Source: an uncultured Selenomonadales bacterium (GTDB taxonomy: Bacteria; Bacillota; Negativicutes; Selenomonadales; Selenomonadaceae). From it: 64,000 nt of DNA. Below the pieces are notes generated by a model that saw only the letters and a program-made list of their open reading frames with translations, did no database searches and was not told the DNA's origin. The first letter of the stretch is position 1. Each line of letters begins with the position of its first letter. Shown here piece by piece: positions 20,603 to 43,352 of the stretch. Where the stretch lies: NCBI GenBank assembly GCA_937877655.1, contig CALFJC010000176.1, positions 4,607 to 68,606 of the forward strand, read 5' to 3'. The translations under genes and the position numbers were made by a program.

Positions 20603-20789
20603 GAAGGGCAGAATTAAGGAAGAACAAATTTCGTTCGATTAATTTTTTGTAAGAAACAAGGACAAAATTTTTCGGAGGTGAAGTTCATGAGGGAATCTGT
20701 AAAATTTTTTTAGGAGAGAAAATGCGGTTGAAAAATTTTTTACTCACGAAACCTTGACCTCCGCAAACTCAAGGAAAGGAGATAAATTT

Positions 20790-23700
20790 ATGAGGAATGA
20801 ATTCAGTTTCGACTTGCAACGTTTTGACGGCGTTTGGAAAATCGCGGACGAAATTTATTCGACCTTTACCGACGCGCTCGCCGTCATTGCGGGCAACTCG
20901 ACAATAAGTTTAACGACAGATTCTTCCGAAAAAGTGAACGGCACAATCCCCGCCGACACCGTAATAGATTTGGGCGGCAACACCTGCACAATCACGGACG
21001 GAGCTTTGACGCTTGGAGATAATGTCACTTTCACGAACGGCACTTTAAATATCGAAGGCGGCATTTTCACGGGCAATTTGAATTTCGGCGCGGGAATGAC
21101 TGTTTCAATAACGGGCGGCAATTTTTCCAATGATGTTTCGGCTTATCTTGCCGAAAATTTTTCGCTCTATCAAATTGACGAGACTTATACCGTTATCGAA
21201 AATGCCGTGCTGAATCTCGACTTGCCCGTTTCCTCCGCACGGGAAACCGCCACTTCGTATCCTATAACAATTCCTGCCGGCGGCAAAAGCGCAGTCATTG
21301 AAATCGGCGGTGTATCAAAAACCATCATATCAGGCGCGACAAATGCCATAACTGTTTCCACAGTTTCGGGCGGCGCGGTTGTAACGCTTTCAAATCCCGG
21401 CGAAGATTTTTATGTAAATGACGATACTTACAGAACTTATAAGCTGAACACTGCCGGCAGTAACGGAATAGTTTTAACGCTCGGTTCGGGCTCGGCGGTA
21501 ACAGTCGGTTCGCTCGATAAAAATGATGTCTTTTCGATTAACGACGAAAAATTTTCAATAACTGCTCTGGGAGTTTTTTCGGGTTATGACAGCGTCAACA
21601 CTGCCGACAAAATGATTTTAGGATCGTTGCCTTCAACTTTGGCTTTGACAGGTTCGACGCCCGACAATTTATCTTCCGCCTCAACTACTGATTGGTATAA
21701 AATTGTTGAAGTTGACAAAGGCGTGCTCAACATTACCGGCGCGAGCGATTTTGATACTTTGGCAGATTCTTCTTATTATAAAGGAGTTATCGCCGTCGAC
21801 ACCGACGGAGATACGGACGCCACACGCATTTTTTATGCCGAGCTCTCCACAACCGCCATAAAAGGTCAAAAATATATGATCTCGTCGATTACAAGTGCTT
21901 CGGTCGACAGTTCACTTGAAGGTACACTTTCAAACATTTATATTGCTTCAGATGTTTTGAGCGGCGGCGTTGTTTTTACGGAAAATTTTGCGGCTTCGTC
22001 AGCTTCTGCTCCGACAATAACGACGGATAACGCAACTTTTCACGTAGACAGTTCTGAAGGCTATTTCGTTTTGTCGGGCGGCACGACCATTCCCGTTTCT
22101 TTGAACAGTTCGGCTAAAGAAATTTCTTTAATCAGAGGTTCTTTGACTGCCGCCGTCACGGATCAAACTGTCACGACAGACAAATACACAATTTCTTCTT
22201 ATACGGGCGGCACTTCGGGCGACGGCATAGAATTAAACAGCGACAGCAACGGCAACGTTACTTTGGGCGATTTGGATGTCGGCGAATCTTTTTATTTGAC
22301 AAACGGATCTGTTTCCTCAACCTACACGATGACAAAAATCGGTTTGGTAAACAACGACGGCGAACTTTTGTTAAGACGGGGAACTTACAGCGGAATTAAA
22401 GAAAGTATCTTGCCCGTTTCTCTAATCACCAACGCAACGGAATACACTCCGCTTTATGCCTCCGAAGACATTGTCTCGATAACGGGAAATTACTCTTCAA
22501 ACCCTACGCTCATTTCCTGCGCAAATAATGCTCTGGCATCTCTTACTTACAACTCAAGCAGAAACATTTACAATCTGTCCACAGATTACGATACCGACGA
22601 ACTCGATTTGGGAAATTGGGCGGGAATTTACTTAAGCAACAGTGCAACGGTAAGTTTAAGCAAAGCCTTTATTGATGATGAAGAACCTTTGAGAATTACA
22701 ACGGGCAATTCATCGGGAACCATTGCCAATTTTGCCATTACCTCTCTTAAATCCGGTTCTGCAACGGGCACTACCTTAACCGGAAGTTCCACTTCTCTTC
22801 AAACCCTTTCTACCGACGCGGGAATAGCGGAAGTTCGTTTGTTCGGCGGCAGTTTTGTTTCTTCAAACTCAACCAAAGTCAATGTTTCGCTTAGTAATTC
22901 CGAAGATATAGACGTTACATCATCCTATTACACTGTGACGATATCCTCTGATTTAAATGGGGCAACCATGATCTCCGATCCTCGCAGTAATTTCGCGGTT
23001 GGAAGAGCTTCGCTCAGAAGTTCGGCGACATTGATAACAGACAGCGACGGCACTACAAGCATTGTTTCGGGAAAATATTTCAACATTTACGATTCGGCAG
23101 GTTTCTCCGATTCGGATTCACATGCCGAATATTCTTCGATAAGCGGCAATGTGACTTTCATATACGATACGACCAACGGCGGCGACGTATACGCTACGGA
23201 TTTGCAATACAATTCCACAACCTCAAACAACGATGTATTTCAATGCATCAAAGATGGCGACACCATTACCTACACAATGGTGAACAGGAAATTGCAATAT
23301 GAAAGTAAAAATACCGGCGGCAAAAAAGTTTGGATTAATGACGAAGGCAACAGCAATATTCGTTCCGGAACTCATGTAAATCTGAACGACGATTACTTCA
23401 GAAAAATAATTTCCTCTTCGGGCAAACTCACCATTCCTTCTGCCGCTTCCGATATGGATGACGGAGAAACCGTTCTTATTGTCGCCGAAGATCTCGATCT
23501 CGATAAAAGTTACGGCACTTTGACAAAGACGGATGAAACTCATTACAATCTTAATCAAAGTGATTCGGATAATTACGATTTGAGCGACATTGTAATTACC
23601 GACAGCTCTACCGTAAATTTCAGCGAAGATTTTTACAAAACCAACATTAATCTTTACGTCAGCAATAAAAAACAAACTTCCTTGCGCTCCGAAACTGCAG

Positions 23701-26700
23701 GCATGAGTTTTGCCGTAAGCGGCAGTGACGGCGTGGCTTACGTCACGGGCGCAAATGAAGTCAGCTTGATTAGCGGCACAATTTTAACCGACGATTCTTC
23801 TCAAACGATTTGGATGGGAAATTATTCAGTTTCAGCCAACCCGAACGATACGGTATCCGACGGCTTAAATGTAGTTGTGACAACTCTTCAAGGAAGTGTC
23901 GGCACATTTCAAATTGTCAATGACATTGATTACAACGAATCATTCATTGTAAACGGTATTGAATATAATCGCGGCGCATTGGGCTTGACTTTTGATGAAA
24001 CCGTTTCGGGCACAACCGTAACCAAATTTTATAAAGGCGATTTAATTCTTTCGGGAAGTGAAACCGTCACTACTGAAAGCCAAGCCGTCGGCGTAATTTT
24101 GGATGATTTGTTTACTGACAGCTTGTCGGGAATTTTGGCGGCGGCAGAATCGGGAATATACACGGAAGATCCTTCAAAATATGTTTTTGCAATCGGCGGC
24201 GAGCACAGCGTAAATGCTCTGGTTGTTGACGATTTGGACAAACGTTCAAAGAGACATGCAGATCTTCAAGTTTCAAGCGGAAAGTATGTCTTGACTACGG
24301 TTGACAACAGCGAATCTTGGGCTAATCTCGACGCAATTTCTGTTGTGAGCGGCGTAACAACTATTTCCAGCGTTTTCACTTCCAATGCCGACGGCGAACT
24401 TGTTACGATTATGACGGCGGGCAGTTCCCAAAATTCTTTGGGAGCCTCCTTCTTCGTCACCAAATCAAAAAGAGATATTTTCACGTTAAACGGTCAAGAT
24501 GATCGACCGACAATCGGCAACGCAACGGCATTAACTCTTTTGGACGGCGTGATAACTGCGACAAATACTCAAACCATAACGATCGGCGAGGGAGATACTA
24601 CCTTTCACTCGGCGGCGAATATGGGAATTTCCTTCGACAAAGAAAACTCGGAGGCGAGTTTAACCGCTGCCACAGGAAATGCCTTTACAGTCGACGGCGA
24701 CACTTACAGCGTTGTTTCGGGCAACGGAATGGACTTTTTCGTCGGAGAAGACGGCGGAGTTACCGTTGAAGGTTTGACTTATGCCGGCGGAGACGTTTTC
24801 ACTTACAACGACTCAACTTATTATCTGAAATCGACGGGCTTCGTGAAAAAAGATGCCTCAAATTATTTGTATCGTTGGGATAAAACCGATGATCATTCTT
24901 TGGCAGGCGGCTCGGTTGCAATTTCTGATCTCGAAACAAGCGGTAACTGGCAAGGTATTGTTACAATAACAAACGATACCGCTACAGTTGTTCCCTCCAG
25001 ATTCCACAGCCCGACGACAACTTTGATGGATAAAAATTTCAAAAATACCTACGGCACTTTGGAATTTGTCACGAACGGAATTTACAGCTTGTCGAAGGAC
25101 GCCGACGACTCCGCTACTCTCTCGGCAATTAATATCACATCAAAGAATATAAACACTCTTTCTGTTGACGAAGATTTTGAAGGCTTGACAATCTCTTACA
25201 ACAATTCATCCGTTAAAGTCGGAGATCTGAAAGCCGACAGCGACGATTTTTATCAAGTCTCCATTTCCGGCGGCATAATGGGTCTTTCGGGCGTGGCAAC
25301 TGCCTCGCTGATAAGCGGTTCGTTGCTGGCGGACAGCAATGTCGGAGTTTCTGTTTCCGTCAACAGTACTTACGGCACAGAATATATCAGAGCAGGCGGC
25401 TCGGCAGTAATAACTTTGATGGGCGGAACTGCCGCTGTCATTTTGGATCAAGACGATTATTTCTCCATAGGTACGGAATCCTACACTTTAGGCAAGCTGG
25501 GCTTGGCAAATGAGGATAAACAACTTTTAGTCAACGTTGACAGCAACGGCAAAAAATTTGTAGTAACAACAGCTTCAGGGCAAAATGAAACAATCGGCTT
25601 TGCTACCATTGCAAATCAAGATAATTGGTGTGATCTCCTCGCTCCCGAAAACGGAGTTTTGACAATAAGTTCTGCGCTTGAACTTACATCTTCACTTGAT
25701 CATTTTGTTATTGTCAATGATGACAAGACTCCCGATTATTATTACGGAAAACTTACTCAAGATACTTCTTCGGGCGGCTATTCCTTAGAAACAATGACAG
25801 GTGCCGATTCTGCTCTTTGGCCTACAAGCGATACTATTTTGGTTGACAGCTCGGTTGTCACGCTCAGCAGTGATTTCCAAAAGAGAAATATTGCGGGCGT
25901 AAGGTCGGAAGCTGCTTTCGTCGTCAATGACAGCGGAAATAATTCCTTTACCGTAGCCGATACAAGAAACGGCGCGATTATAAATGATGCAACAAAAATT
26001 TCTCAGACAGACGGCACAATCATTGCAAGTGCAAGAACTCAGACTATTACGGCGGGCAGCGCGCAAATTTCAAACTACAACACCGGCGACAGCATAAAAG
26101 TTGTTGTCGACGGTGACGACGCCAGCATTGCCGCTTTGAACAACGGAGATATTTTCCTTGTCAACGGCACGCGCCACACAATGGCAACGGATCAAAAACT
26201 CAGAACTGCAAACGAATTGTTCAGAGAAACTATTTCCGGCAGTGTTGCAGTCTCCGATTTGGTAAACGACGATTATTGGTACAAAATTATCAGCACGGAT
26301 ACCGAAGGTGCTCTTACGATCAGTTCTTCGACAACAAGCATTTTGTCCGACGGAGATTCGGCTTACATAATCAACGGAAGCGACATCGATACAATTTACG
26401 GATCACTTACAAGAACGACGCTCGGCGGCTACAGCTTGAGCAGAAATGACGATTTGAGTCAAAGCAGTAAGTCAACCTTAACGAGCATAGTTTTGGATGA
26501 ATTCCCCTTGAGTTTGACTTCCGATTTTAAAAATATCCCAATCATTTCGGGCAAAACAACTTTGCAGGCGACGACAACCGATGATGTCTTTGCTTTGGAT
26601 TATGATAATTATGTTGAAGTTTTCAATGCCGACGGAGTTTCTTTGGGCGGCGGCACGCTGAAAACTTCCGATTCAAATCAGACAATCCGCGCAGGCAGTT

Positions 26701-35700: not shown

Positions 35701-38700
35701 CGGAAAGTAATTGGACGCCGATGCTCGTTGCAACGAACGGAGCACTTACCGTCAACGCGAACACTTTAGTCGACGGCGATGAATATGTTCTTGTCGACAG
35801 CACAACCGACCCGACAAAAGTTTACGGCGACTTAGCGAAGGAAGACGGCAAATACACTCTGACGAAACCTTCTTCAGCCACAGATGATTTGTCTTCAATC
35901 AGCGTAAGCGGCATTTCGATTGAAATTGCTCCCGATTATGCGGGCATTCCGCTTCTTGCAAATGATTCAAATTTCTCTGACATAACCTTAAGTGATGAAG
36001 AAGAAACTTTTACTCTCGACGCGACAAATACAACGCCGAGTCTTTCAAATGTCAGTTCGCTCACTTTGAATGCGGGAACGATTTATGCCGCCGAAAATCA
36101 AACCGTCACAGTTGGCGAAAATGTAATTCTTCCTACCGCGATTAATTCCGAAGAATCCGAGAGCGAAACTTACGGCAAAATGACAATCGGGATGTCGACA
36201 ATCAGCGGCATTGACGAAGGCGAATCGTTCACTGTCAACGGAACAATTTACAAGATGCTCAACACGGGCTTATTCAACGATACCGACAATAAACTTGTGA
36301 CGGAAGGATTTGACGCGGGCGAATTTACCTTCGGAGACTTTGGCGAAATTCAACTTATCGAAGTAAGTTCTTCGGGCGCACTCAATTTGTCAAATGTTTT
36401 TGTGGGAGATTCAATCGTTGTTGATAAAGTTGAAAGTCCGGCAAATATTTACGGCTCGCTGAACAGAAACGGAAATGCTTACACGCTTGAAAAAGAAGGC
36501 GACTCGGACGGAATAAAATTTATCGCAATGCCCGACGCCGATTCTACATTGACAACGGACATTTCTGCGACAGTCAACACGCCGTCAAGCTCGAACACTT
36601 ACACAGTCAACGGAAAAGAATATTCGGCGGCTAACTCCGCGCTTGTGATTAACAGCGAAGGCACAACTTCAACTTTGACGGACGGAAAAATTTCTCTGGC
36701 TGAAGAAAATGATACAGTTACGACGACGGGCGGCAATGTGATAACTTACACCACCGACAGCGACGGAATGACTGTTGCAGTCGACGGCACAGGCGAGACG
36801 GAAGCAATAACTTTCGACGGCTTAACTTTGGGCGATACCTTCAAAGTCGGAGAAAATTCTTACAAAGTTTCGGCAGTCGGACCGATAAATTCGGACGGCG
36901 AACTTTGGAATGGAAATGCTTACACGGAAGGAATCACACTCGCGGCGATTGACACGGAGAGTAATTGGACGCCGATGTTTGTTGCAACGAACGGAGCACT
37001 TACTGTCAACGCTGAAACTCTTGCTGACGGCGAAGAATTTATTGTTGTCGACAACCTCAACGACCCGACGAAGATTTACGGCGACTTGACCAAAACGGAC
37101 GGCAAATACACTTTGACGAGACCGACCAACGCCACAGATGATTTGTCTTCAATCAGCGTGAGCAATATTGAAATTGAACTTGCGAATGACTTTGCGGGCG
37201 TCGATCTCGTTGCAAATGCCTCCGAAATTTCCGACACGGTTTTGACTAACGAAAATAAATCTTTCACACTTAACGCGACGAATACCACGCCGAGCCTTTC
37301 AAATGTCAGTTCGCTCACTTTGAACGCGGGAACGATTTATGCCGCCGAAAATCAAACAGTCACGGTTGGTGAAACGACAATTCTTCCGACTTCGATTAAC
37401 GCCGAAGACTCCGAAGCTGAAGAATACGGGAAAATGACAATCGGGCTTGACAAAATCAGCGGCATTGACGAAGGCGAATCGTTCACCGTCGACGAGACAA
37501 TTTACAAGATGCTCAACACAGGCTTATTCAACGACACCGACAACAAACTTGTGACGGAAGGATTTGACGCGGGCGAATTTACCTTCGGAGACTTTGGCGA
37601 AATTCAACTTATCGAAGTAAATTCTGCGGGCATGCTCAATTTGTCAAATACACTTGCGGGAAATTCTCTTGTTGTCGATAAAGTTGAAAGCCCGGCAAAT
37701 ATTTACGGCAAACTTAATCGCAACGGAAATGTTTACACGCTGGACAAAGAAGGCGACTCGGACGGAATAAAATCTGTGACGATGCCGAATTCAACTTCGA
37801 CTTTGACAACAGATATTTCCGCGACAGTCAACACGCCTTCAAGCTCGAATACTTACACCGTCAACGGCAAAGATTATTCGGCGGCTGATTCCGCACTTGT
37901 GATTAACAGCGACGGCACAACTTCAACTTTGACGAACGGAAAAATTTCTCTGGCAGAAGAAAATGATTCTGTTACGACGACGAGCGGTTCTATCATTACC
38001 TATAAAACTGTTGACGGCGACGGAATGACTGTTCAGGCGCGGACAAGCGGCAACGTAACTTTGGGCGGCTTGACTTCGGGCGACGCTTTCAAAGTCGGAG
38101 ATGATTCTTACAGAGTAACAGATCTCGGCTTCCACAACGGCAACGATTATCTGTGGACGAGCAATTCCAATTTCAAAAACGGAGTCTCCATTTCCGACAC
38201 GGGCACTGACGGCTTAAATAACTCCGACAACTGGACAAGAACCGTTGTTGCCGAAGACGGAGCACTTTCCGTCAAAGCCAATACTCTTGGCGACGGCGAA
38301 TCCGCAATTATCATTAACAGTTCGGCAAATGCGACGGCGACGCTCGGCACTTTGACAAAAACTTCCGACGGCTACACTTTAACCACCGATTCCGACGACG
38401 AAAAACTTTCAAGCATTTCTGTTGCCGGTACAAAACTCACAATCGCCGAAACCCTCGCCGATGTTCCCGTCTCGGCTCTCAAGGCGACGTTCACGGTTAC
38501 GGCTGAAGATCCTTTCACTGTCGACGCGACGGGCGATAATGTTTCAATCAGCGAAGACGCAACCGCCATTGAAATTTCCAAAGGCACAATCACTGCGACG
38601 ACCGCGCAGACCGTCACGGCAACCGAAGATTCGGGCAGTACAAAAGTTATCGTTCAGGATAACGGCACTTTCAATATCGGCGGCGAAGAATTCCTTGTTG

Positions 38701-41700
38701 CGGATAATCAAGATGATTTAACTTTCGGCATGACAAACGGCGTCCCCGATTCTGTCGACAAGCTTGAAAAAGATGCAAAAGTTACGATTGACGGAATAAC
38801 TTACACCGCGCCCGAAGACGGCTCGACTTTGAAATTTGCCGAAGAAGACGGCTGGTATTTCGACGGCTACATTCCTTCGGGCAACAAATATAATTTGACT
38901 GTCGACGGCAACGGAAATATCACGGTTGACGCGGGAGTAAAATTCACCGACGTTGTGGCGAGCGGAAAAACTTTGCCGTCCGACGGCGTGATAAAACTCG
39001 CGGCGGACATTAACAACGTTGCAGTCAACGTCACAAACAACGGCTCAACGCCAATCGCCATCAACGACAAAGATAATAATCCTCTCGTCGAAAATCTCGG
39101 CAGAGTCAAAAACGTTACCTTTGACGAAGCGGGCGTTATGGTTGAAAAAACTTCCGACGTTGCGGGCGCATTGTTCACAATCGATGTCGGAAAGAGTCTC
39201 GAAACCGAAACGGCAACGGTTACTTCAAATGCAAACGATTGCGAAGTCGGAATTGGTTCGAACGGAACTTCTTTCAGCATAGAAAAATCTGCGACGGTTG
39301 ATGCTCCCGTTAATACCGCGCTGACTCTCGGCAAGGCAAATTACACGGTCAACGGCGTAGAATTTTCTGCAAGCGGCACCGCGCAGGCAAGTATCACTTC
39401 GGCGGGCGTTAAAGTCGATTTGGTTTTAAGCGACGTGATAACTTATGAACAAACAGACTTCGACGGCACGGGCACTGCAACTGCCGACATTGACAAAGAA
39501 GGCGGCGTAAGTTTGACGAGCGGCGCAAGTGTTGCAGGCGCGGCGGGTAAAGCTCTCAACATTTCCGGAACAATCACTCTCGAAGCAAATACGATTGAGG
39601 CGGCGACTGCAACCGACGTTACGGCGAAAGCCGCCGGAATTGCCGTTGCCAATGATGATGTAACAGTTACGGGCGACGACAACGGCTATAAAGTCAACAT
39701 TGCCGAAGGGAAAATCACGGGGCTTGAAAAAATCGGCGGCTCGGACGGCGTCACGCTCGGCGGACTTTCAAACGGCACGATTAAAACCGATAAAGTCGGC
39801 GCGTTCACTGTGGCGGACAGAACTTTCACGGCGATTGGAGATGCCTCCGTCACTTACGGCATTGAAGACGGAAAAATTTCTTACGTCAACGACGTTGACA
39901 GCATTTTAAGCGGCGATTTCTCCGACGGCTTGGAAGTCAACGGCGGCGAAATTAAAATTACGGGCGAAAATGTAAGTCTCCGCGCAGATTCCGACACCGA
40001 CAGAGAAATTCTCGGCATGAAGAATAATTCGACGCTTACGACGGCGGAAGGCGTTACGAAAGTCGAACCGATTGGCGCGGGCAAATTCACTTTCGGAGAT
40101 CATACTTTTGAAACAGACGATTCAACAATTTCTTTCAATCTCTTAAACAGTTCGGTAAGAGGAATTGACAGCCTTGAAAGCGGCAACTTAATAATTTCTC
40201 AAGACGAAAATAATCTTGCCGTCAACGACGAAAATATTTCTTTGGAAGATATAAATTCGCCCGTGACGCTCGGCATTTCCGACAGCGATATTTCTTCGAT
40301 TTACGGGCTTAACGGCGGAATTGCGGGGCTTGATAATGCAACTGTCTTCGGACTTTCGACGGCGACCGTCAACGGAAAATTCTTCGACATAGAAGGCGAC
40401 GTTGTCAACGCAATTATTGTCGACGGAGATGTTCCGAGTCTTTACGGCTTGGACAGCGGCGCGACAGTCAAGAGTGCTCCGAATATCAACGCCCGCACAA
40501 CCGCGAACGGAACTTTCATTTTCCGCGACGACAAATACAATATCAACGACACGCTGGACGGAGTTGTTGTCTTCAGCACAAACATTAACAGCTACGTTAC
40601 GAATATCGGCGAGTTTGAAGGCTCAATCAGCGGCAATTTGGAAGAGATAAAACTCAACGATAAAGATTTCAATTCGTCAAGCGACAAAGTCACGGTTGCA
40701 AACGACGGCACGGACGTTATCGCGATTCACGGCTTGTCGAACGGCGACACAATCAGCGGCAGTCTTTCCTACGCAACTTATCTCATGCCCGAAGGAACTT
40801 TGACAGTCAATGAACAAGTTTTCATTCTGCGCGGCGATGATAACGGCGTAAGCATTTCGGGCGACGGACAAATTATTCTCGGCTTGGATAAAGACGCCAG
40901 CTTGACGGTTGCGAAGGGCGGAGACTTCAGCGTAAACAGCAACACTTTCGACGACGCTCCCGACGGCACAACCTTTATTGCGGGGCGCGACGGAGTTTAT
41001 ATCTACGATCCGAATAACAAACCGATTCACGAAATAACTCCCACCGACGACATAATTAAAAATCTTATCGGCGAGGCAGAGCCGGGCACGATAAGTTTAA
41101 GCGGCGATTCGGCGGCGTCCGTAATTGCAAGCGGCGAACTTGATTCTCCGATGGCTTTGACTTTGGACAACGCGACGGGCGCAAGCGTCCAAGTTGCCGA
41201 CTTCAGCAACAGCAAATATGCAAAACGCGTTACGCTTCTCGGCGGAGATCAAGATATTAAATTCAATGACGAAGGCAAAAATGCGGCGCATGTTGCCCCC
41301 GACGCGACTGGCAGAAAAAATATCGAGCTCGGCGACGGCGGCGATGTTGCGGTTAATGACAGCCCCTACGCAAAAGTTTCAATCAAGACGGGCAAAGGCG
41401 CAGATACAATCGTTAATCGCAAAGGCGCGAGCAGTACCGTTGACGTTAAGGAAAACGGCGATACAACGATTGTTCCGACTTCGGGCAGAGTGACGCTCCA
41501 GAATTACGACGAGAAAAATAACGCCAAGATCAGAAGCTTTGAATATGTCGACATGATCGGCGCGATTAAGAGCAATGAAATAAAATTCGGCGACGGCTTA
41601 ATGACTTTGGGAGATGCGGTTGTTGTCTTTGATCCCGAAGCCAAAGAAAAGGGCGGCACTTTTGCAAACCTTGTCGATTATGCGGGCGAAGAACACCGCG

Positions 41701-43328
41701 TAGGATTTACTCACACGGACGGCGGCGTCCTCAACGCGAGCACTTCGGGCGACGATCTGATTCTGAAAGGCAATTACGCCGAAAAATCTTCCGACACCAC
41801 AAAGAGCGGTGCTTCAACTCTTATCGGCGGGCGCGGCGATGATACAATTCTTGCCGGCGAAGGCGATTACATAAGAGCAGGCGCGGGCGACAATCAAATT
41901 TATCTCACGGATGAAAATCTGCGCGGAACGGACGGCGCAATAATCGTTCTCGGCGACAGGGGCAGAAATACCGTCCACAACTTCAACGACGGCTATACAA
42001 CGGGCGATGCGGTTCTTGTAAGCGACATTTCGGCACTGAAATTTACTTACGACTCGGACGAAGGGCTCGTCATGCGGTCGGGCAATGCTTGGATAACCTT
42101 TGACGGCTTGGAGCCCGCCGAAGAATTGGTTACCTTTGAAGACTCCGACACTGCCGCGCCTTACGAACTGAAAATTACCGACGGCAAGAATGAATACAAC
42201 GTTGCTGTTGCGCAGGAAGACAGAGATATCGGCGTTGACGACTTCAGCGAGGCAAATGTTTTCTACGGCAACAAAGACGGCGGCAACGGCTTGAACTTCA
42301 GCGAATACTCCGGCACTGTCGAAGTCAATATGAATCTTGACGCGGGACGTCTGAACGGCGAAGATATTTTCCTTTACAACATAAACAAATTGCAAGCGGG
42401 CAACGGCGATTCAACGCTTATCGGCAAGGCGGGCGAGAAAAATACTCTTCTTGCCGGCGAAGGAAACGGCAGTATGTGGTCGGCGGCGGGCAGAGATCTT
42501 ATGGTCGGCAACACTTCCGACGAAAAAGACGGCTCGACAATGTTCTACTTTATGGCGGGCGACGGACGCGACACAATCGAAGGCTTCAATTACATGTCCG
42601 ACGCGAACGATTACAATGCGGATGTTATCAGCTTGCCCGCAGGAAATATCGTCACGAACGTTCTCATGCAAGGCGATGATATTGTCATGCAGATTAACGC
42701 CAGCACGAGCGATTATCTGCGCTTGCAAGACGCTGTCGGCAACAACTTTAAACTCAATGACCGCGTTGCAAAAGTTGATACTCAAGGCGAGTTTGATAAT
42801 CTGGTTGACTTCTATGTTGTCGCCGAGAGAAATGCCACAATGAATGTCGGAGCAGATGTCGGCAACGCGCAAGTCTGGCTTGACGACAAAGAGACGGGCG
42901 AACACGGCATCATTTACAAAGGCGAAATTAAATATCTCGACGCCTCCAACGCAACGGGCAACAGTACGCTTGTCGGAAATGATTTGGACAATGTCATTTA
43001 CGGCGGCGAAGGTTCCAACAGTATCTGGGGCGGCTTCGGCGCGAACAACGATACACTTATCGGCGGCAACGGACACAATGTATTCTTCTTCGGCTTGGAG
43101 AACGGCAGAGATACAATCACTTCGATTAATTCGGGCGACATTGTTTATCTGGCGAACGGGATTGAACAAATTGCCGCGACCACGATAACTTCCGGCGGCA
43201 CGAAGATTGAATTGACGGACGGTTCCTCGCTTGAAATTATGGGCAATGCTGAAGGCATCGAATATCACTTGCAAGACGGAAGCAAATACACCGCAGATCA
43301 CGGCGCGGGACAATGGAATAAGAAATAA
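20790..43328 (+). CDS. Giant (7,512 aa) repetitive RTX-type secreted/surface protein, probable type I secretion substrate
   Basis: A single open frame of 22.5 kb. GGAAAGGAG lies 8 nt before ATG 20790. It is T/S/N/D/G-rich, acidic and almost free of Cys, with no signal peptide. It has at least 25 recurring modules and C-terminal GGxGxD nonapeptide blocks. Terminators lie upstream (20526) and downstream (43353). Confidence 0.9.
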   Translation: MRNEFSFDLQRFDGVWKIADEIYSTFTDALAVIAGNSTISLTTDSSEKVNGTIPADTVIDLGGNTCTITDGALTLGDNVTFTNGTLNIEGGIFTGNLNFGAGMTVSITGGNFSNDVSAYLAENFSLYQIDETYTVIENAVLNLDLPVSSARETATSYPITIPAGGKSAVIEIGGVSKTIISGATNAITVSTVSGGAVVTLSNPGEDFYVNDDTYRTYKLNTAGSNGIVLTLGSGSAVTVGSLDKNDVFSINDEKFSITALGVFSGYDSVNTADKMILGSLPSTLALTGSTPDNLSSASTTDWYKIVEVDKGVLNITGASDFDTLADSSYYKGVIAVDTDGDTDATRIFYAELSTTAIKGQKYMISSITSASVDSSLEGTLSNIYIASDVLSGGVVFTENFAASSASAPTITTDNATFHVDSSEGYFVLSGGTTIPVSLNSSAKEISLIRGSLTAAVTDQTVTTDKYTISSYTGGTSGDGIELNSDSNGNVTLGDLDVGESFYLTNGSVSSTYTMTKIGLVNNDGELLLRRGTYSGIKESILPVSLITNATEYTPLYASEDIVSITGNYSSNPTLISCANNALASLTYNSSRNIYNLSTDYDTDELDLGNWAGIYLSNSATVSLSKAFIDDEEPLRITTGNSSGTIANFAITSLKSGSATGTTLTGSSTSLQTLSTDAGIAEVRLFGGSFVSSNSTKVNVSLSNSEDIDVTSSYYTVTISSDLNGATMISDPRSNFAVGRASLRSSATLITDSDGTTSIVSGKYFNIYDSAGFSDSDSHAEYSSISGNVTFIYDTTNGGDVYATDLQYNSTTSNNDVFQCIKDGDTITYTMVNRKLQYESKNTGGKKVWINDEGNSNIRSGTHVNLNDDYFRKIISSSGKLTIPSAASDMDDGETVLIVAEDLDLDKSYGTLTKTDETHYNLNQSDSDNYDLSDIVITDSSTVNFSEDFYKTNINLYVSNKKQTSLRSETAGMSFAVSGSDGVAYVTGANEVSLISGTILTDDSSQTIWMGNYSVSANPNDTVSDGLNVVVTTLQGSVGTFQIVNDIDYNESFIVNGIEYNRGALGLTFDETVSGTTVTKFYKGDLILSGSETVTTESQAVGVILDDLFTDSLSGILAAAESGIYTEDPSKYVFAIGGEHSVNALVVDDLDKRSKRHADLQVSSGKYVLTTVDNSESWANLDAISVVSGVTTISSVFTSNADGELVTIMTAGSSQNSLGASFFVTKSKRDIFTLNGQDDRPTIGNATALTLLDGVITATNTQTITIGEGDTTFHSAANMGISFDKENSEASLTAATGNAFTVDGDTYSVVSGNGMDFFVGEDGGVTVEGLTYAGGDVFTYNDSTYYLKSTGFVKKDASNYLYRWDKTDDHSLAGGSVAISDLETSGNWQGIVTITNDTATVVPSRFHSPTTTLMDKNFKNTYGTLEFVTNGIYSLSKDADDSATLSAINITSKNINTLSVDEDFEGLTISYNNSSVKVGDLKADSDDFYQVSISGGIMGLSGVATASLISGSLLADSNVGVSVSVNSTYGTEYIRAGGSAVITLMGGTAAVILDQDDYFSIGTESYTLGKLGLANEDKQLLVNVDSNGKKFVVTTASGQNETIGFATIANQDNWCDLLAPENGVLTISSALELTSSLDHFVIVNDDKTPDYYYGKLTQDTSSGGYSLETMTGADSALWPTSDTILVDSSVVTLSSDFQKRNIAGVRSEAAFVVNDSGNNSFTVADTRNGAIINDATKISQTDGTIIASARTQTITAGSAQISNYNTGDSIKVVVDGDDASIAALNNGDIFLVNGTRHTMATDQKLRTANELFRETISGSVAVSDLVNDDYWYKIISTDTEGALTISSSTTSILSDGDSAYIINGSDIDTIYGSLTRTTLGGYSLSRNDDLSQSSKSTLTSIVLDEFPLSLTSDFKNIPIISGKTTLQATTTDDVFALDYDNYVEVFNADGVSLGGGTLKTSDSNQTIRAGSYRIHGLSFTGSDSAITVIRSGSVVKVGELNVGERFVVGKKTYRATAVGLIEEDSWKICDDDGYDIGSGVFTVDSNFERDIIGVEEKELNLSSQAGAAVIVDDINAPTARIADLDYDSTSGFTVTRNYDDSLTSIALGTNTIGLTTKFNTTVRTTQSGNNPTFTVNKDRYKSANAALTIQSGSSDNNSSLISGAVVLDTDTSAVKTSDGVISSVSGGELIFTAAAGSVATLSGLNNGDKFAVNGASYSVTGAGLLTETQIWTPSTYESVLLDENTTNGLLNTEDNWDYIVAVSNGALAIPPTGYPQNVEEWIILSEDLNSRCGTLKGSDAAGYTLAASSWDTINAISINKGGISVAFPSKSFRNVTIEGADSGATFRITDNKSFTVTDGINGASITNATRISQSSGTIALTDTNQTITTSAKHSINAGNEGDGITVIIDSEGEKVGALSIKDTQDTFTIDNTVYEMLPNGSIHRPTVSKFWTKSILEDDSSILIDDLQNESYWGGYITISGGVLKITRDVLGSWSSAFVVDENVSTKIYGTLSKSSTGYTLNGATAILSLSSIEVLTEAQPVSLTSDYVDVSIKAGSTYFKATEAASGFKINYTSSELTADDATAITLLEGDWTLKDANQVLTADGQVIQVGGTSSTISVNYDGANIVNVTGIDAAGEIVSISGKKYELTAGDGISVNINDSIQTVNDISEDDDFSIANDRFIKKEPGFIKSNSKNYLWTADGDVTAGISVAELSDNDENWSAVATVASDEIVIDKNSSTAILIDSVTDLSKIYGSLTVENDTYTLTNDKNNGADPALISINNVVASLTSDFAKVPINAAGASFAVTALTSGNKFSVDATDTFAVVGNASKVSLTSGTLADLTKATTVTVDSQSVAAGKNSTINVGFDGSEITFSELDNGESFSFDKNTYTYKNVGVVKGGRTLFVNDTLDGSVTDTILEDSTNFKTMFSSDGATLTLQSKASGVFVDSASTAVSAVYAIQDYDSANKIYSFAQIADADFTIDAATLTSGGSISAPFEAKVLTPSTGTFNVNGRDYIAAADLTIDTTEDSSTLNKGTVSLKSGGFVDMTNVDNDVSVVSGDGLKVSVENGSYTLGGLNKNDVFAIGGYSYTMKSNNFIVREDAGGNEEIYISSVVGGALAQEIIDEPDYWNAYVTLDSSNNLNLNSTITGGIVISKDFLEMFADLTVNSTNNFNVNALDGADTSGIKAINLTEENSTLTTDFAATVKTASGSNTYTINDNPYTAKNSALEISATKDSSTITKGIITLNDSTVMTTSNHTISGSVDEINVASMKFTPSINEVFSVDGQSYTMTAVGLTKGGASIWTKESDTSYILPDDDAWSNMASLSSEGVLNLRNGAAEGSTVIINSDGTKRMASLIRSDNTYTLNAVGGNSIAAIQLGDSTTDTLTLTADFDSDVKTGNGVYKVNGLTYKGNGLTIKSENNSSALYGGTVNLSADEDYNSVIDYTNGYNVTATGGDGINVAASEGTITNLTNLNSGDTFIIDNVYYKVLANQTFVQTETDGTPSKLYENLISGSSLKYSDIVNEDNFVNLIGLEDGVLDLTQLYGEDGWSAVIVADKTNPINRVAKVSYSDAEGYKLETTYNGDDTKITSIKLGSAVTSFSTTLDKNVNTTATVTYTINDKLFTAQDDLTIVTADGGAILTNGTVSIPEGENYSVTTRRINSGTQTNETIQSTSGTVTVNVDNTSGTVTIGGLNANETFTVDGTEYTVTNIGLLNEDKDSLNASVADTWTVATTDLSGSNWRTILSVTNGALDLTSNTPLNVSVVDISSYTNAFKYGFLTYSGGTYTLTQDENESALSSITITGTNATFGAKASGVPITSNGATFSVTATDNFTINAASTSNPPAVSDTTSVTGIYLSAGTISAPADIPITANGKSVTATSGDMTVTNSSGTITVEGLNSGETFTVDGVNYKVTTAEKLFDITDEDEPQEVITGFADGIFTIDNAEFMRIITLNGSELDLKEQTSDAYVYDNLTDPTVKYAALTVTGGKTKTLTGETDTTTIQTINIAENDNLTVDFDTRVHSEIGNVIVNTKSYSGTTELVIDTDGTTTNSTLYNGTINLNTTYSSATDFRNNTLERTSGKAFTATATNGRFTEINNLDNEAAFTYGGKTYTQSIPGLIIADEKVICTDILANETIALADLTSETWIDFRAPVSGVLDISALDDTYIIYDDENNPTKQLATFTVASDGKKTLADHENNAASEIEAVEIAAGDVLAVDFVTKINSPIGEVTVNDKTYSGTTALVIDSATDSEGEYTSTLYNGTITLDRINSSATDSKENTLTREGGASSDADGTFTATAENGRFTIIEGLDPTESFTYRNVTYVQSEQGLRNGAFIRKDLAGTTINLSDLSGAWSNILAPVKGVLDISEVTEDALVYDSATNPTTQLATFTVDSGKKTLEDYEGNSSAITKVELAAGDDLTIDFATKISSPIGTVAVNGNSYVGTTALEIDSVINSDDTKDSTLTNGTVSLAEEDDFVKTTGGSTITYTTAGDGMTVKVDNSDETEAITFDGLTLGDTFSVGEISYRISEIGPVNSEGKLWHGNSYTEGITLAAIETESNWTSMLAATNGALSISENTLEDGGEFIVVDNLNDPTKIYGDLTKSGDTYKLTRPTNANDNLSSINASGIEIELANNFAGVNLVANISEISDTTLINANRSFTLDATDTTPSLSNISSLTLNAGTIYAAVNQTVTAGNNVITPSTINGDMIIGLDTISGIVEGDIFTLGEDTYKMTPIGLVNDTDSSKTLVTNGIENGTLTVADIEETPLIAVSSAGMLNLSNAVAGDSIVVDSLTSPENIYGALNKAENIYTLYEDGTADGIKFIAMPDADSTLTTDIAAEVDTNSGSNTYIVNSKKYIAADSSLAIDTDGTTTNSTLTDGKISLAEENDSVETTGGTSITYTADGDGMTVAVDGTGETEEITFDGLTFGDTFTIGEISYKVSAVGPINSDGKLWNGNVYTEGITLAAINTESNWTPMLVATNGALTVNANTLVDGDEYVLVDSTTDPTKVYGDLAKEDGKYTLTKPSSATDDLSSISVSGISIEIAPDYAGIPLLANDSNFSDITLSDEEETFTLDATNTTPSLSNVSSLTLNAGTIYAAENQTVTVGENVILPTAINSEESESETYGKMTIGMSTISGIDEGESFTVNGTIYKMLNTGLFNDTDNKLVTEGFDAGEFTFGDFGEIQLIEVSSSGALNLSNVFVGDSIVVDKVESPANIYGSLNRNGNAYTLEKEGDSDGIKFIAMPDADSTLTTDISATVNTPSSSNTYTVNGKEYSAANSALVINSEGTTSTLTDGKISLAEENDTVTTTGGNVITYTTDSDGMTVAVDGTGETEAITFDGLTLGDTFKVGENSYKVSAVGPINSDGELWNGNAYTEGITLAAIDTESNWTPMFVATNGALTVNAETLADGEEFIVVDNLNDPTKIYGDLTKTDGKYTLTRPTNATDDLSSISVSNIEIELANDFAGVDLVANASEISDTVLTNENKSFTLNATNTTPSLSNVSSLTLNAGTIYAAENQTVTVGETTILPTSINAEDSEAEEYGKMTIGLDKISGIDEGESFTVDETIYKMLNTGLFNDTDNKLVTEGFDAGEFTFGDFGEIQLIEVNSAGMLNLSNTLAGNSLVVDKVESPANIYGKLNRNGNVYTLDKEGDSDGIKSVTMPNSTSTLTTDISATVNTPSSSNTYTVNGKDYSAADSALVINSDGTTSTLTNGKISLAEENDSVTTTSGSIITYKTVDGDGMTVQARTSGNVTLGGLTSGDAFKVGDDSYRVTDLGFHNGNDYLWTSNSNFKNGVSISDTGTDGLNNSDNWTRTVVAEDGALSVKANTLGDGESAIIINSSANATATLGTLTKTSDGYTLTTDSDDEKLSSISVAGTKLTIAETLADVPVSALKATFTVTAEDPFTVDATGDNVSISEDATAIEISKGTITATTAQTVTATEDSGSTKVIVQDNGTFNIGGEEFLVADNQDDLTFGMTNGVPDSVDKLEKDAKVTIDGITYTAPEDGSTLKFAEEDGWYFDGYIPSGNKYNLTVDGNGNITVDAGVKFTDVVASGKTLPSDGVIKLAADINNVAVNVTNNGSTPIAINDKDNNPLVENLGRVKNVTFDEAGVMVEKTSDVAGALFTIDVGKSLETETATVTSNANDCEVGIGSNGTSFSIEKSATVDAPVNTALTLGKANYTVNGVEFSASGTAQASITSAGVKVDLVLSDVITYEQTDFDGTGTATADIDKEGGVSLTSGASVAGAAGKALNISGTITLEANTIEAATATDVTAKAAGIAVANDDVTVTGDDNGYKVNIAEGKITGLEKIGGSDGVTLGGLSNGTIKTDKVGAFTVADRTFTAIGDASVTYGIEDGKISYVNDVDSILSGDFSDGLEVNGGEIKITGENVSLRADSDTDREILGMKNNSTLTTAEGVTKVEPIGAGKFTFGDHTFETDDSTISFNLLNSSVRGIDSLESGNLIISQDENNLAVNDENISLEDINSPVTLGISDSDISSIYGLNGGIAGLDNATVFGLSTATVNGKFFDIEGDVVNAIIVDGDVPSLYGLDSGATVKSAPNINARTTANGTFIFRDDKYNINDTLDGVVVFSTNINSYVTNIGEFEGSISGNLEEIKLNDKDFNSSSDKVTVANDGTDVIAIHGLSNGDTISGSLSYATYLMPEGTLTVNEQVFILRGDDNGVSISGDGQIILGLDKDASLTVAKGGDFSVNSNTFDDAPDGTTFIAGRDGVYIYDPNNKPIHEITPTDDIIKNLIGEAEPGTISLSGDSAASVIASGELDSPMALTLDNATGASVQVADFSNSKYAKRVTLLGGDQDIKFNDEGKNAAHVAPDATGRKNIELGDGGDVAVNDSPYAKVSIKTGKGADTIVNRKGASSTVDVKENGDTTIVPTSGRVTLQNYDEKNNAKIRSFEYVDMIGAIKSNEIKFGDGLMTLGDAVVVFDPEAKEKGGTFANLVDYAGEEHRVGFTHTDGGVLNASTSGDDLILKGNYAEKSSDTTKSGASTLIGGRGDDTILAGEGDYIRAGAGDNQIYLTDENLRGTDGAIIVLGDRGRNTVHNFNDGYTTGDAVLVSDISALKFTYDSDEGLVMRSGNAWITFDGLEPAEELVTFEDSDTAAPYELKITDGKNEYNVAVAQEDRDIGVDDFSEANVFYGNKDGGNGLNFSEYSGTVEVNMNLDAGRLNGEDIFLYNINKLQAGNGDSTLIGKAGEKNTLLAGEGNGSMWSAAGRDLMVGNTSDEKDGSTMFYFMAGDGRDTIEGFNYMSDANDYNADVISLPAGNIVTNVLMQGDDIVMQINASTSDYLRLQDAVGNNFKLNDRVAKVDTQGEFDNLVDFYVVAERNATMNVGADVGNAQVWLDDKETGEHGIIYKGEIKYLDASNATGNSTLVGNDLDNVIYGGEGSNSIWGGFGANNDTLIGGNGHNVFFFGLENGRDTITSINSGDIVYLANGIEQIAATTITSGGTKIELTDGSSLEIMGNAEGIEYHLQDGSKYTADHGAGQWNKK
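32700..34175 (+). repeat. Intragenic tandem repeat, about 2.4 units of 600-621 nt (200-207 aa)
   Basis: Unit landmarks are YVYDNLTDPTVKYAALTV (32700), IIYDDENNPTKQLATFTV (33300) and LVYDSATNPTTQLATFTV (33921). Confidence 0.8.
34176..37922 (+). repeat. Intragenic tandem repeat, three units of 1239, 1254 and 1254 nt (413-418 aa), highly similar
   Basis: Units start at the in-frame STLT(N/D)G(T/K)(V/I)SLAEE(D/N)D codons at 34176, 35415 and 36669. A diverged fourth unit starts at 37923. There are long identical DNA runs between units 2 and 3, for example 36303-36365 versus 37557-37620. Confidence 0.9.
41820..43118 (+). repeat. C-terminal RTX-like Ca2+-binding nonapeptide blocks within the giant ORF
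   Basis: LIGGRGDDTILAGEGDYIRAGAGDNQIYL (41820-41906), LIGKAGEKNTLLAGEGNGSMW (about 42413-42512) and LVGNDLDNVIYGGEGSNSIWGGFGANNDTLIGGNGHNVFFFG (42969-43118). Confidence 0.75.
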
Positions 43329-43352
43329 AATTTAAAGCACCAAAAATTTTTA

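Follow-up and report, generated by a model that had tools for sequence, protein, structure and literature searches.

A putative giant surface protein of ruminant-gut Selenomonadaceae with a Prp-type N-terminal motif and a predicted RTX fold

The giant gene, its neighbors and its family

More than a third of the window (the whole 64-kb stretch of DNA analyzed) is taken up by one gene. A single unbroken ATG-to-TAA frame of 7,512 codons runs along the forward strand from 20790 to 43328 and accounts for 22,539 of the 64,000 bases (35.2%), while the next-longest ORF in the window encodes at most 879 residues. The frame contains no ambiguous position (no N in the DNA, no X in the translation) and only one stop, the terminal one, and translation and ORF listing together bear out the uninterrupted 22.5-kb frame described in the first-pass annotation. 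The ORF listing enters the frame as 20754..43328 (+), with 7,524 residues counted from the first possible TTG. The real start is the ATG at 20790, because an AAGGAG Shine-Dalgarno sequence (20776..20781, forward strand) lies 8 nt upstream of it and because the N-termini of related proteins likewise begin M-x-x(-x)-F-x-F-D-L-Q-R-F; the good Shine-Dalgarno sequence and ATG reported earlier are thereby upheld.

The gene lies between oadGB and valS. After oadB, the forward strand can form an intrinsic-terminator-like hairpin at 20526..20561, with a 9-bp stem (AACCGAACA/UGUUCGGUU) followed by U7; RNA folding gives it -13.7 kcal/mol and a z-score of -2.1. A terminator scanner missed this structure because its loop is longer than 8 nt. 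The hairpin is a plausible intrinsic terminator parting oadGB from the giant gene, but the promoter that had been proposed along with it was not confirmed, since a consensus scanner found no sigma-70 promoter upstream of the giant gene. Downstream, a strong intrinsic terminator was correctly called at 43352..43386 (+): its 11-12 bp stem and T-run fold at -15 kcal/mol with a z-score of -6.0, and none of 200 shuffles folded equally well. The gene has a terminator hairpin on each side, and the monocistronic unit that had been suggested is supported. No Rfam family was matched anywhere in the window.

The protein belongs to a rare and taxonomically narrow family. A homology search with the 1,549-aa C-terminus as query recovered 138 cluster representatives among 1.84 billion, and all 32 genome loci (32/32) came from ruminant-gut Selenomonadaceae, Selenomonadales or Quinella MAGs. 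The family is under-counted in the catalogues, because scaffold gaps break the gene in the short-read MAGs examined, whose homologues are interrupted by N runs within the gene. The other complete members are 3,765-6,554 aa long and have N- and C-termini in common, the 7,512-aa protein being the longest intact member seen. Orthologues occupy one conserved chromosomal position across the clade: oadG-oadB lie upstream in the window and in the homologous loci L001, L035 and L036 (oadB in L029), and valS-folC-Wzy-rex lie downstream in L003, L008, L011, L019 and L027 (valS-folC in L004, valS in L002). The host clade is diderm, since FlgH and FlgI adjoin the homologue in L001 and an outer membrane is visible by TEM in Quinella (PMC9585023).

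The N runs inside the short-read homologues indicate that the locus is hard to assemble, and one might suspect that the giant frame is an assembly artifact or a decaying pseudogene. This is the least credible of the explanations considered here. The window copy is free of N and of internal stops, the other complete members have matching ends, and the repeats are so diverged (DNA identity at most 86% over 300 nt) that repeat collapse is unlikely. In addition, the last 1,200 codons show dN/dS values of 0.15-0.31 against orthologues, and are thus under purifying selection.

Domain architecture

The protein is acidic (1032 D+E versus 409 K+R), rich in T (12.4%), S (10.5%), G (9.5%) and D (8.9%), and contains only 8 Cys. 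A hydropathy scan revealed no hydrophobic Sec-like N-terminus and no TM-like segment: the 15-residue window mean stays at or below 1.0 over the first 60-70 aa, and the 19-residue maximum anywhere in the protein is 1.6. Composition and hydropathy therefore agree with the original description of an acidic, T/S/G/D-rich, nearly Cys-free protein that lacks an N-terminal signal peptide. Placing it among the largest bacterial proteins was also fair, although bacterial proteins much larger than 7,512 aa are on record. N-x-S/T sequons are modestly enriched (169 versus 131 +/- 9). A glycosylation link through the GT41 gene 11 kb downstream was considered but found no support; this gene is SPINDLY/OGT-like and not HMW1C-like.

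From one end to the other, a 12-residue leader (discussed below) is followed by a 225-aa N-terminal domain, 26 repeat units, some 1,040 aa specific to the family, and finally three RTX-type blocks with a tail. The G/T/N-rich N-terminal domain (aa 13-237; 20826..21500, forward strand) has no match in Pfam, NCBIfam or PDB sequences and resembles only the N-termini of family members, such as that of P0113 (40% identity).

The repeat array spans aa 238-5963 (21501..38678, forward strand) and is a putative stalk or extender. Tiled self-BLAST was used to detect it, as a single self-BLAST gave the identity match only, and self-similarity appeared at offsets of 205, 415, 625 and 830 aa. Starting from one unit of about 205 aa, an iteratively built HMM found 26 full-length tandem domains with E-values from 1e-18 to 1e-66. 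These make up 76% of the protein, so that the phrase "almost entirely repeats" holds for the bulk of it but not for the last 1,549 aa, which lie outside the array. The units are 16-82% identical in amino acid sequence to unit 23, and the last six alternate between two types to form a super-repeat of 413-420 aa with 66-86% identity. At the DNA level, TRF detected no tandem repeats. Within the unit, hhalign of thirds and halves detected no sub-repeat.

The first-pass annotation could not assign the repeat units to any recognized type, and profile and structure searches lead to the same result. Profile searches (Pfam on eight tiles and 12 other members, NCBIfam on four segments, and PDB sequences) gave no match to the unit and placed the modules in no described adhesin repeat family; hits to DUF6406, PTSIIA_gutA and a fatty-acid-binding protein at E 4e-3 were dismissed as noise. 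BIg, cadherin-like and VCBS repeats are about 90-110 aa long, and the unit of about 205 aa corresponds to none of them. The AF2 model of unit 23 is confident (pLDDT 89.7, pTM 0.84) and all-beta, with 19 strands. Foldseek found no neighbor for this model at E <= 1e-3 in either the PDB (best E 0.064, TM 0.21) or BFVD. As far as these profile searches and the predicted structure go, the unit is described in no known family, and its predicted fold is without a neighbor in PDB or BFVD. Because it has neither a sequence family nor a fold neighbor, the module is a target for structure determination.

The array is followed by a family-specific, non-repeat, beta-rich region (aa 5964-7005; 38679..41804, forward strand), which is conserved at 28-74% identity among family members and has no Pfam or NCBIfam match. 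AF2 modeled aa 6313-7005 as nearly all-beta, with block pLDDT values mostly of 70-95. This region is a candidate for the distal or ligand-binding part of the protein. By eye, a stretch at roughly aa 6800-6905 looks like a degenerate beta-roll with GGDxD-like motifs.

Three RTX-type blocks come next, all on the forward strand: block 1 at aa 7006-7080 (41805..42029), which includes GGRGDDTIL; block 2 at aa 7205-7282 (42402..42635); and block 3 with its cap at aa 7387-7470 (42948..43199), in which GGEGSNSIW and GGNGHNVFF precede F-F-G..NG-D-I. With block 3 as the seed, jackhmmer picked up blocks 1 and 2 (i-E 1.5e-20 and 7.6e-23), and block 3 itself aligns to block V of the Bordetella CyaA RTX domain (5cvw; phmmer E 9e-4). 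The earlier statement about terminal Ca2+-binding nonapeptides finds weak support in the sequence itself, where there are only 3 near-canonical nonapeptides and Pfam HemolysinCabind scores 18.9 bits (E 1.5e-3), below its cut-off of 23; this Pfam family is significant in 2/12 other members (best E 2e-9). At the level of fold, however, the statement is strongly supported. An AF2 model of the last 1,200 aa (aa 6313-7512; pLDDT 84.4) matched the CyaA RTX domain in Foldseek at E <= 0.001 and probability 1.0, with 7rah_E at E 3e-6 and 7usl_C at E 4.4e-6 (both probability 1.0) and 5cvw at TMt 0.64 (probability 1.0). RTX rolls of serralysin, alkaline protease and T1SS lipases followed at E 1.6e-3 to 6e-3, and 1kap (serralysin) superimposed with an rmsd of 3.4 A over 206 columns (probability 1.0). 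The predicted structure of the C-terminal region is thus that of an RTX parallel beta-roll with a C-terminal cap. As in CyaA (5cvw, 6sus, 7rah), there are several blocks with a capping segment after each; unlike CyaA, the giant protein has three short degenerate blocks and no toxin, acylation or pore-forming segments.

The conserved tail (aa 7471-7512; 43200..43325, forward strand) has the family consensus ELTDGSxLxVQSNAxIEYRLxDGSxYTADH. T1SS signals are located at the C-terminal end of RTX proteins, at least in the account given in PMC6891781, and by analogy of position the tail is a candidate uncleaved type I secretion signal. Such signals, expected within the last ~60 residues, carry no diagnostic sequence.

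The N-terminal leader and the Prp protease

The most distinctive feature of the giant protein escaped the first-pass annotation. Its leader, MRNEFSFDLQRF (aa 1-12), contains F5-S-F-D-L-Q-R-F12 (20802..20825, forward strand), an instance of a near-invariant F-x-F-D-L-Q-R-F motif with a predicted scissile bond at F12|D13. The form F-x-F-[D/N]-L-[Q/L]-x-F heads all 33 of the family proteins with an intact N-terminus and is never internal; 29 of the 33 have exactly F-x-F-D-L-Q-R-F, and 32 have Arg at P2. The six specified positions each carry 4.0-4.3 bits of information, against 2.5 bits for the residue right after the motif and about 1 bit further on. At that first residue past the motif (P1'), this protein and 17/33 family members have Asp, and 10/33 have Ala.

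This leader closely resembles the site at which Prp, a cytoplasmic cysteine protease, matures ribosomal protein L27 in Firmicutes. The published motif is MLxx(D/N)LQ(F/L)F'A(S/H)KK (PMC9405229), with preferences at P1, P3, P4, P5 and P6 (PMC9405229, PMC9261936), and the giant-protein leader agrees in its P1 F, P3 Q, P4 L, P5 D and P6 F as well as in its N-terminal position, the site being expected within about 8-20 residues of Met1. L27 proteins that begin MLTFDLQRF'AHKKG and MFKFDLQLF'AHKKG exist. When L27s were searched with a synthetic FDLQRF-L27 as the seed, most of the matches came from Clostridia and Tissierellia. Only one L27 among the matches has DLQRF (P0204, on a 773-bp contig), and its FDLQRF string is identical to that of the giant-protein leader. 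There are two departures from the published site. The published tables give F, L or H at P2, where the giant protein has R, although P0204 and 66 phage ORFs also have R there. P1' of L27 is Ala in the published table (Ser in one species), and, judging from the SaPrp structure, only residues up to a certain size fit this position (PMC9261936). As judged from the motif itself, the family leader is a probable counterpart of the sequence at which Prp cuts pre-L27 in Firmicutes, and Prp probably removes these 12 residues. No prp, rpmA or flhB gene was found in the window or in the fetched homologous loci; Prp is reported to be present in all Firmicutes (PMC12324487).

The motif also occurs in phages. 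F-x-F-D-L-Q-R-F-A occurred in 66 viral contigs, as compared to 5 for a reversed-peptide control, and 57 of the 66 occurrences were at ORF N-termini. All of the carriers tested (10/10) were phage head, scaffold, tail or head-closure proteins, so that the motif, so far linked to head and scaffold proteins, is now seen on major tail and head-closure proteins as well. The form with Asp after the motif was found in only 3 viral contigs, against the 66 with Ala. As in pre-L27 and in gp46 and gp47 of the staphylococcal phage 80alpha, the motif of the giant protein falls within the first 12 residues, and the D-L-Q-x-F with hydrophobic P4, P6 and P8 is likewise that of Prp substrates. Unlike those proteins, the carrier is a 7,512-aa chromosomal product, probably a surface protein, with Arg at P2 and Asp at P1', and its cleavage is a prediction.

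A leader of virion type, as found with Ala next on the major head, scaffold, major tail and head-closure proteins of phages, could in principle mean that the giant gene is itself a domesticated phage or phage-like structural gene, for a fiber or a decoration protein. We regard this origin as very improbable. Phage genes are absent from the window and from the homologous loci, where the neighbors are housekeeping genes and the position is conserved; tblastn of the repeat unit and the N-terminal domain against 50,697 GenBank phage records was as empty as the BFVD fold search, so that phage origin was rejected; and the C-terminus is an RTX domain.

A more serious question is whether the leader is a Prp site at all. 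It might instead be a dedicated signal for targeting or secretion, or an element that acts in translation or on the nascent peptide, perhaps serving a non-type-I route, which would fit with the failure to find T1SS genes nearby (see below). The Asp at P1' in half the family, unlike L27 and the phage proteins, is in keeping with this alternative, and so is a motif that is stricter, with Arg at P2 in 32/33, than a generic Prp site requires. Nevertheless, this reading, in which the RTX part would be only a Ca2+-dependent folding or binding module, seems unlikely. We know of no secretion system that uses an F-x-F-D-L-Q-R-F-like signal. A protease that reads the P side should leave a drop in conservation past the final Phe, which is what is seen. 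Furthermore, FDLQRF is present on the L27 P0204, the motif with Ala is present on unrelated phage virion proteins, and Prp cleavage is the only factor published as connecting L27 with the head proteins of phage 80alpha (PMC9405229).

Secretion, anchoring and possible function

No T1SS ABC, MFP or TolC gene and no LapG/LapD-like gene was found in the 64-kb window or beside the L001, L035 and L036 homologues, and the partners that had been suggested as a check are thus missing from all of these loci. The secretion route is therefore argued solely from the C-terminal fold, which makes a calcium-dependent RTX (type I) pathway the probable exit from the cell. Description of the protein as a type I-secreted giant adhesin remains apt with regard to the repeat array, RTX fold, acidic composition and lack of a Sec signal, but it gains nothing from the surrounding genes. 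The supplement of PMC9585023 includes a TolC-family gene and COG2931 RTX proteins in a Quinella bin; no T1SS ABC transporter was found among the Quinella annotation rows covered.

The closest known systems are the giant type I-secreted RTX adhesins LapA (Pseudomonas fluorescens), MpIBP (Marinomonas primoryensis), SiiE (Salmonella) and FrhA (Vibrio cholerae). Like these, the giant protein is acidic, Cys-poor and thousands of residues long, has no Sec signal, and comes from a host with an outer membrane; it shares with them a variable-copy, beta-rich extender array followed by a distinct C-terminal-side region, RTX rolls and a tail. It differs from them in the unit of about 205 aa, which matches no BIg, cadherin, VCBS, PDB or BFVD entry; in its Prp-type leader; and in its Firmicute (Negativicutes) rather than proteobacterial host. 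A further difference is in anchoring, since there are no adjoining T1SS or LapD/LapG genes, aa 1-237 have no family or PDB sequence match and no recognizable LapA-type retention module, and the first 150 residues contain no AA-G/V motif of the kind in the LapG di-alanine site (T/A/P)AA(G/V).

Giant adhesins in the Negativicutes are otherwise represented by trimeric autotransporters such as Veillonella Hag1, found in gut and oral diderm Firmicutes. Proteins of the Hag1 type use the type Vc route and have a Sec signal, a YadA-type head with stalk repeats, and a C-terminal beta-barrel anchor. The giant protein resembles Hag1 in being a very large, presumably surface-exposed protein of a diderm Firmicute, but all of the type Vc features went undetected in it, including the autotransporter domains (YadA, pertactin, C-terminal beta-barrel) sought in Pfam and NCBIfam.

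On balance, we consider it reasonably probable that the product is a giant, functional protein on the surface of a diderm Firmicute (an uncultured, Quinella-like rumen member of the Selenomonadaceae), with the leader and type I steps included. The protein would be synthesized in the cytoplasm without a Sec signal, where Prp would trim the 12-residue leader. The three RTX blocks and the tail would then direct C-terminus-first export through ABC, MFP and TolC components encoded elsewhere, and Ca2+ outside the cell would fold the RTX beta-rolls. The 26 all-beta modules would make up a long acidic stalk, with the roughly 1,040-aa region and the RTX part held out from the cell. If LapA and MpIBP are a guide, the N-terminal domain would remain next to the cell. 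The protein would most likely serve to attach the bacterium to feed particles, other microbes or epithelium, or to build a fibrillar coat.

Secretion need not imply attachment to the cell, and the protein could be part of a self-assembling coat, S-layer-like as is RsaA of Caulobacter, or of a biofilm matrix. Granular layers and material peeling off the surface have been described in Quinella cells (PMC9585023), and the lack of a recognized retention module or LapG site would be accommodated as well. In Foldseek, the C-terminal model does hit RsaA weakly (E about 1e-2 to 1e-1, probability <= 0.47), but the RTX rolls of CyaA and serralysin match it far better. Moreover, the array counts 26 units in this protein as against 14-25 in the other complete family members, and long tandem arrays with variable copy number are typical of stalk-type adhesins, not of lattice S-layer proteins. 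A free coat or matrix protein is accordingly a rather improbable alternative to a cell-anchored adhesin.

What is new here is a Prp-type motif, recognized by sequence, on every intact N-terminus of a giant-protein family. Prp substrates beyond L27 are an open question in the Prp literature (PMC12324487), and FlhB has been put forward as a proposal only (PMC9405229); the giant-protein family, with 33 independent N-termini, provides a concrete candidate for a non-L27 substrate. More tentatively, a chromosomal giant surface-protein family whose stalk is built of a previously unseen 205-residue beta-fold may have adopted the Prp-cleaved leader of L27 and virion proteins. It could then be the first giant RTX-type adhesin family described in the Negativicutes, and could possibly form the Quinella tufts. 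If this is true, Prp would gain a large cellular substrate that is neither ribosomal nor from a phage, and trimming of the N-terminus would serve to mature or license a secreted 0.75-MDa adhesin. Quinella cells bear "short tuft-like surface structures" whose nature is unexplained (PMC9585023). Quinella and its relatives are uncultured and are abundant in some low-methane sheep, and a surface protein of 4-7.5 kaa encoded at one clade-wide locus would be a candidate for the surface structures and the attachment biology of these bacteria.

Gene integrity, position and family

The giant gene occupies one open frame, listed at window 20754-43328 (+), and translation from the ATG at 20790 gives 7,512 residues with a single terminal stop and no ambiguous residues; the longest other ORF of the window is at most 879 aa. 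This ATG is taken as the true start because AAGGAG lies 8 nt upstream and because intact N-termini of homologues in other genomes (the family) begin in the same way, as M-x-x(-x)-F-x-F-D-L-Q-R-F. The product is T/S/G/D-rich and acidic (D+E 1032 vs K+R 409) with 8 Cys, and a hydropathy scan found neither a hydrophobic N-terminal segment nor a transmembrane segment. The first-pass annotation, which had described a single ORF with an ATG and Shine-Dalgarno sequence encoding an acidic, nearly Cys-free protein without a signal peptide, was correct on all of these points. Its terminators and promoter fared unevenly. A strong terminator follows the gene on the + strand (a stem of 12 pairs and a T-run; -15 kcal/mol, z -6.0), and a weaker + strand hairpin with U7 (-13.7 kcal/mol, z -2.1) lies 3' of oadB, as a plausible terminator between oadG-oadB and the giant gene; the scanner returned no sigma-70 consensus promoter upstream of the gene. 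Rfam had no match in the window.

Within the gene, no DNA repeats exceed 86% identity over 300 nt and TRF reported no tandem repeats, so repeat collapse or mis-joining is unlikely. The last 1,200 codons give dN/dS values of 0.15-0.31 against six orthologues. That the ORF is an artefact or a pseudogene is hardly credible given these values, the divergence of the repeats and a frame without an internal stop; it is almost certainly a real gene.

The chromosomal position of the gene is conserved. Immediately 5' are oadG-oadB, membrane subunits of a Na+-translocating decarboxylase, in the window (18897-20504) and in homologue loci L001 (1136-2644), L035 (8337-9842) and L036 (8361-9887), with oadB in L029; they precede the giant gene wherever its 5' side is visible. 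On the 3' side are valS-folC-Wzy-rex in five loci (L003, L008, L011, L019 and L027), valS-folC in L004 and valS in L002. Despite the constant oadG-oadB, other downstream neighbours vary, with PTPS and radical SAM genes in L001, POR in L035 and others in L036. Across these loci valS is 78-95% identical and the giant C-terminus 41-72%, which indicates more rapid evolution of the giant gene than of its neighbours.

An initial protein search found only six relatives, of 1,418-2,419 aa each, because stretches of N divide the homologous genes. In L001 and L002, both short-read scaffolds, such stretches break the homologue within the repeat array (9777-9886 and up to about 9951, respectively), so that gene callers leave only C-terminal fragments of roughly 2,000 aa in protein catalogues; P0001 and P0006, two family proteins whose contigs were examined, are such fragments. 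An exhaustive search with a repeat profile HMM recovered 138 cluster representatives from 1.84 billion, of which 66 reached E <= 1e-30. Other complete members, with leader and C-terminal region, have 3,765-6,554 aa and 14-25 units; no intact member longer than the window protein was seen. The only label that these proteins bear is 'hypothetical protein', in Selenomonadaceae MAGs and in Quinella sp. 2Q5. In a search of 185,579 species-representative genomes, all 32 loci belonged to Selenomonadaceae, Selenomonadales or Quinella MAGs, and every host stated in a source name is a ruminant (buffalo, sheep, goat or deer). Three remoter relatives (L032, L033 and L034; 29-30% identical across some 900 C-terminal residues) occupy other positions, partly in the same MAGs; RGIG6722 carries both L009 and L032, and thus some genomes have two paralogous giant genes.

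Elsewhere in the window, an 808-aa protein (9085-11511, +) combines an N-terminal TadE/TadG-like pseudopilin segment with a Listeria-Bacteroides repeat (Flg_new) and is unusually large for a Tad-pilus-associated protein; next come genes for a PP2C phosphatase (11592-12368) and for a PASTA Ser/Thr kinase (12632-14590). ORFs of 278 and 209 aa (56504-57340 and 58568-59197, both +) had no Pfam match and flank a metallo-beta-lactamase-fold gene, just 3' of a Uma2-family gene (55912-56502).

The repeat array and the C-terminal region

Tiled self-BLAST gave offsets of about 205, 415, 625 and 830 aa, and an HMM iterated from one unit resolved 26 full-length tandem units at aa 238-5963 (E 1e-18 to 1e-66), with 16-82% identity to unit 23 and no detectable sub-repeat. 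Two unit types alternate over the final six units, forming a super-repeat of 413-420 aa at 66-86% identity, which points to recent two-unit duplications. The protein had been described as built almost entirely of repeats; this is roughly right, and outside the array lie a leader (aa 1-12), an N-terminal domain resembling family N-termini only (aa 13-237), a family-specific beta-rich region (aa 5964-7005), three homologous RTX-type blocks (aa 7006-7080, 7205-7282 and 7387-7470) and a conserved tail (aa 7471-7512). Pfam searches of eight tiles, the check suggested for the modules, gave nothing above threshold and NCBIfam gave no match, leaving the 205-aa module undescribed.

The case for the predicted Ca2+-binding nonapeptide C-terminus is weak in sequence and strong in the modelled fold. 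HemolysinCabind scores 18.9 bits, below the cut-off of 23; this Pfam profile is significant in two other members of the giant-protein family (best E 2e-9). A model of the last 1,200 aa, built with 16 homologues (pLDDT 84.4), matched the CyaA RTX domain in Foldseek (7rah_E, E 3e-6; 7usl_C, E 4.4e-6; probability 1.0), CyaA block V (5cvw, TMt 0.64), serralysin/alkaline protease (1kap, rmsd 3.4 A over 206 columns) and the T1SS lipases 2zvd and 2qua. CyaA block V also aligned in sequence to RTX block 3 (E 9e-4). These fold and sequence matches indicate that the C-terminus is an RTX beta-roll domain of the kind found on type I secretion substrates.

A Prp-type leader

The leader was absent from the first-pass annotation. 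F-x-F-[D/N]-L-[Q/L]-x-F occurs in 33/33 family proteins with an intact N-terminus and internally in none. It lies at residues 4-12 in 31, and in the other two after a longer upstream extension, perhaps a mis-called start; 29 have exactly F-x-F-D-L-Q-R-F. Six specified positions carry 4.0-4.3 bits, the following residue 2.5 bits (D in 17 and A in 10 of 33), and those beyond about 1 bit.

Prp, the cysteine protease that removes the pre-sequence of Firmicute L27, cuts at MLxx(D/N)LQ(F/L)F'A(S/H)KK; the motif recurs in phage 80alpha, whose capsid and scaffold proteins have ...LNLQHF'A and ...FNLQFF'A, and the N-terminus of FlhB is a proposed further substrate (PMC9405229). The best 120 L27 matches included MLTFDLQRF'AHKKG once (P0204, 96 aa, on a 773-bp ENA contig), with the Arg at P2 that the window protein also has, and MF(K/R)FD(L/I)Q(L/F)F'AHKKG twelve times; the MFKFDLQLF'AHKKG form is found in several L27s, such as P0189 and P0239 (Syntrophomonadaceae). 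Neither MLTFDLQRF'AHKKG nor MFKFDLQLF'AHKKG is in the published motif table (PMC9405229). A back-translated scan for F-x-F-D-L-Q-R-F-A matched 66 IMG/VR contigs (L037-L102), vs 5 for a reversed-peptide control, and 57 of these matches fell within 12 residues of an ORF Met. All ten viral ORFs classified with PHROGs were virion proteins, three each of the major head, scaffolding and major tail classes and one head-closure protein; examples of the leader are at L046 4167-5330 and L042 1086-1646. Its presence on major tail (phrog_807) and head-closure (phrog_55) proteins suggests that the Prp-type leader is wider among virion proteins than the literature consulted describes. Judged by these L27 and viral sequences, the first residues of the giant protein are the same leader as that of pre-L27 and phage virion proteins. 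The gene could on this account be a domesticated phage fibre, but it has no phage context, its repeat unit and N-terminal domain had no sequence match in 50,697 phage records, and the unit had no fold match in BFVD; this origin is very improbable.

Whether Prp cuts the giant protein is a more tentative matter. P1' of the window protein is Asp, a form found in three phage contigs (chance level), and the structure of an SaPrp complex points to limited room at P1' (PMC9261936). The Arg at P2 also departs from the published motif, which has Phe or Leu there. Whether Prp acts on anything besides L27 is described in the literature as unknown (PMC12324487). Processing by Prp is best regarded as a fair possibility short of an expectation; that the leader is a signal of another kind is unlikely.

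Probable secretion and a possible surface role

Made in the cytoplasm without a Sec signal, the giant protein would lose its 12-residue leader to Prp. Such removal is compatible with type I secretion, because its substrates have their signal at the C-terminus and keep the N-terminus in the cytoplasm until export ends. Export would then proceed C-terminus first through an unlinked ABC/MFP/TolC system, with Ca2+ folding the three RTX blocks, as their fold suggests. The annotation of a Quinella bin lists a gene of the TolC family along with further RTX proteins of COG2931 (PMC9585023). The T1SS genes and LapG/LapD-like partners that the first-pass annotation had suggested looking for were found neither in the window nor beside three homologues (L001, L035 and L036), which is the chief weakness of the secretion argument. 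The protein is nonetheless probably an RTX-type secreted surface protein. That it forms an S-layer or matrix instead of acting as an anchored adhesin is improbable; the matches to RsaA are weak. As a whole, the best explanation is a giant RTX surface protein with a Prp-type leader, which we consider reasonably likely.

A GT41 glycosyltransferase (54535-55911, +) lies 11 kb 3' of the giant gene; its catalytic domain resembles SPINDLY/OGT (E 5e-38) and only weakly HMW1C (E 8e-6). In L001 a TibC-like/GT9 heptosyltransferase (18430-19776) is the second gene after the homologue, about 1.2 kb 3' of it. The giant protein has 169 NxS/T sequons, a modest enrichment over the 131 +/- 9 of shuffled sequences. 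That the putative adhesin is glycosylated is speculative.

By analogy, the 26 beta modules would form a long acidic stalk presenting the ~1,040-aa region and the RTX end, and may serve in adhesion or coat formation. The Quinella genome paper, which does not mention a giant protein of this kind, confirms an outer membrane and reports unexplained 'short tuft-like surface structures' (PMC9585023). The earlier reading as a type I-secreted giant adhesin is supported at the level of how the protein would work, but LapA- and SiiE-type adhesins differ from it in their type of extender, in having a retention module and in the secretion genes next to them. What is unusual in the giant protein is its undescribed 205-aa module, its Prp-type N-terminal leader and its restriction to uncultured rumen Negativicutes.
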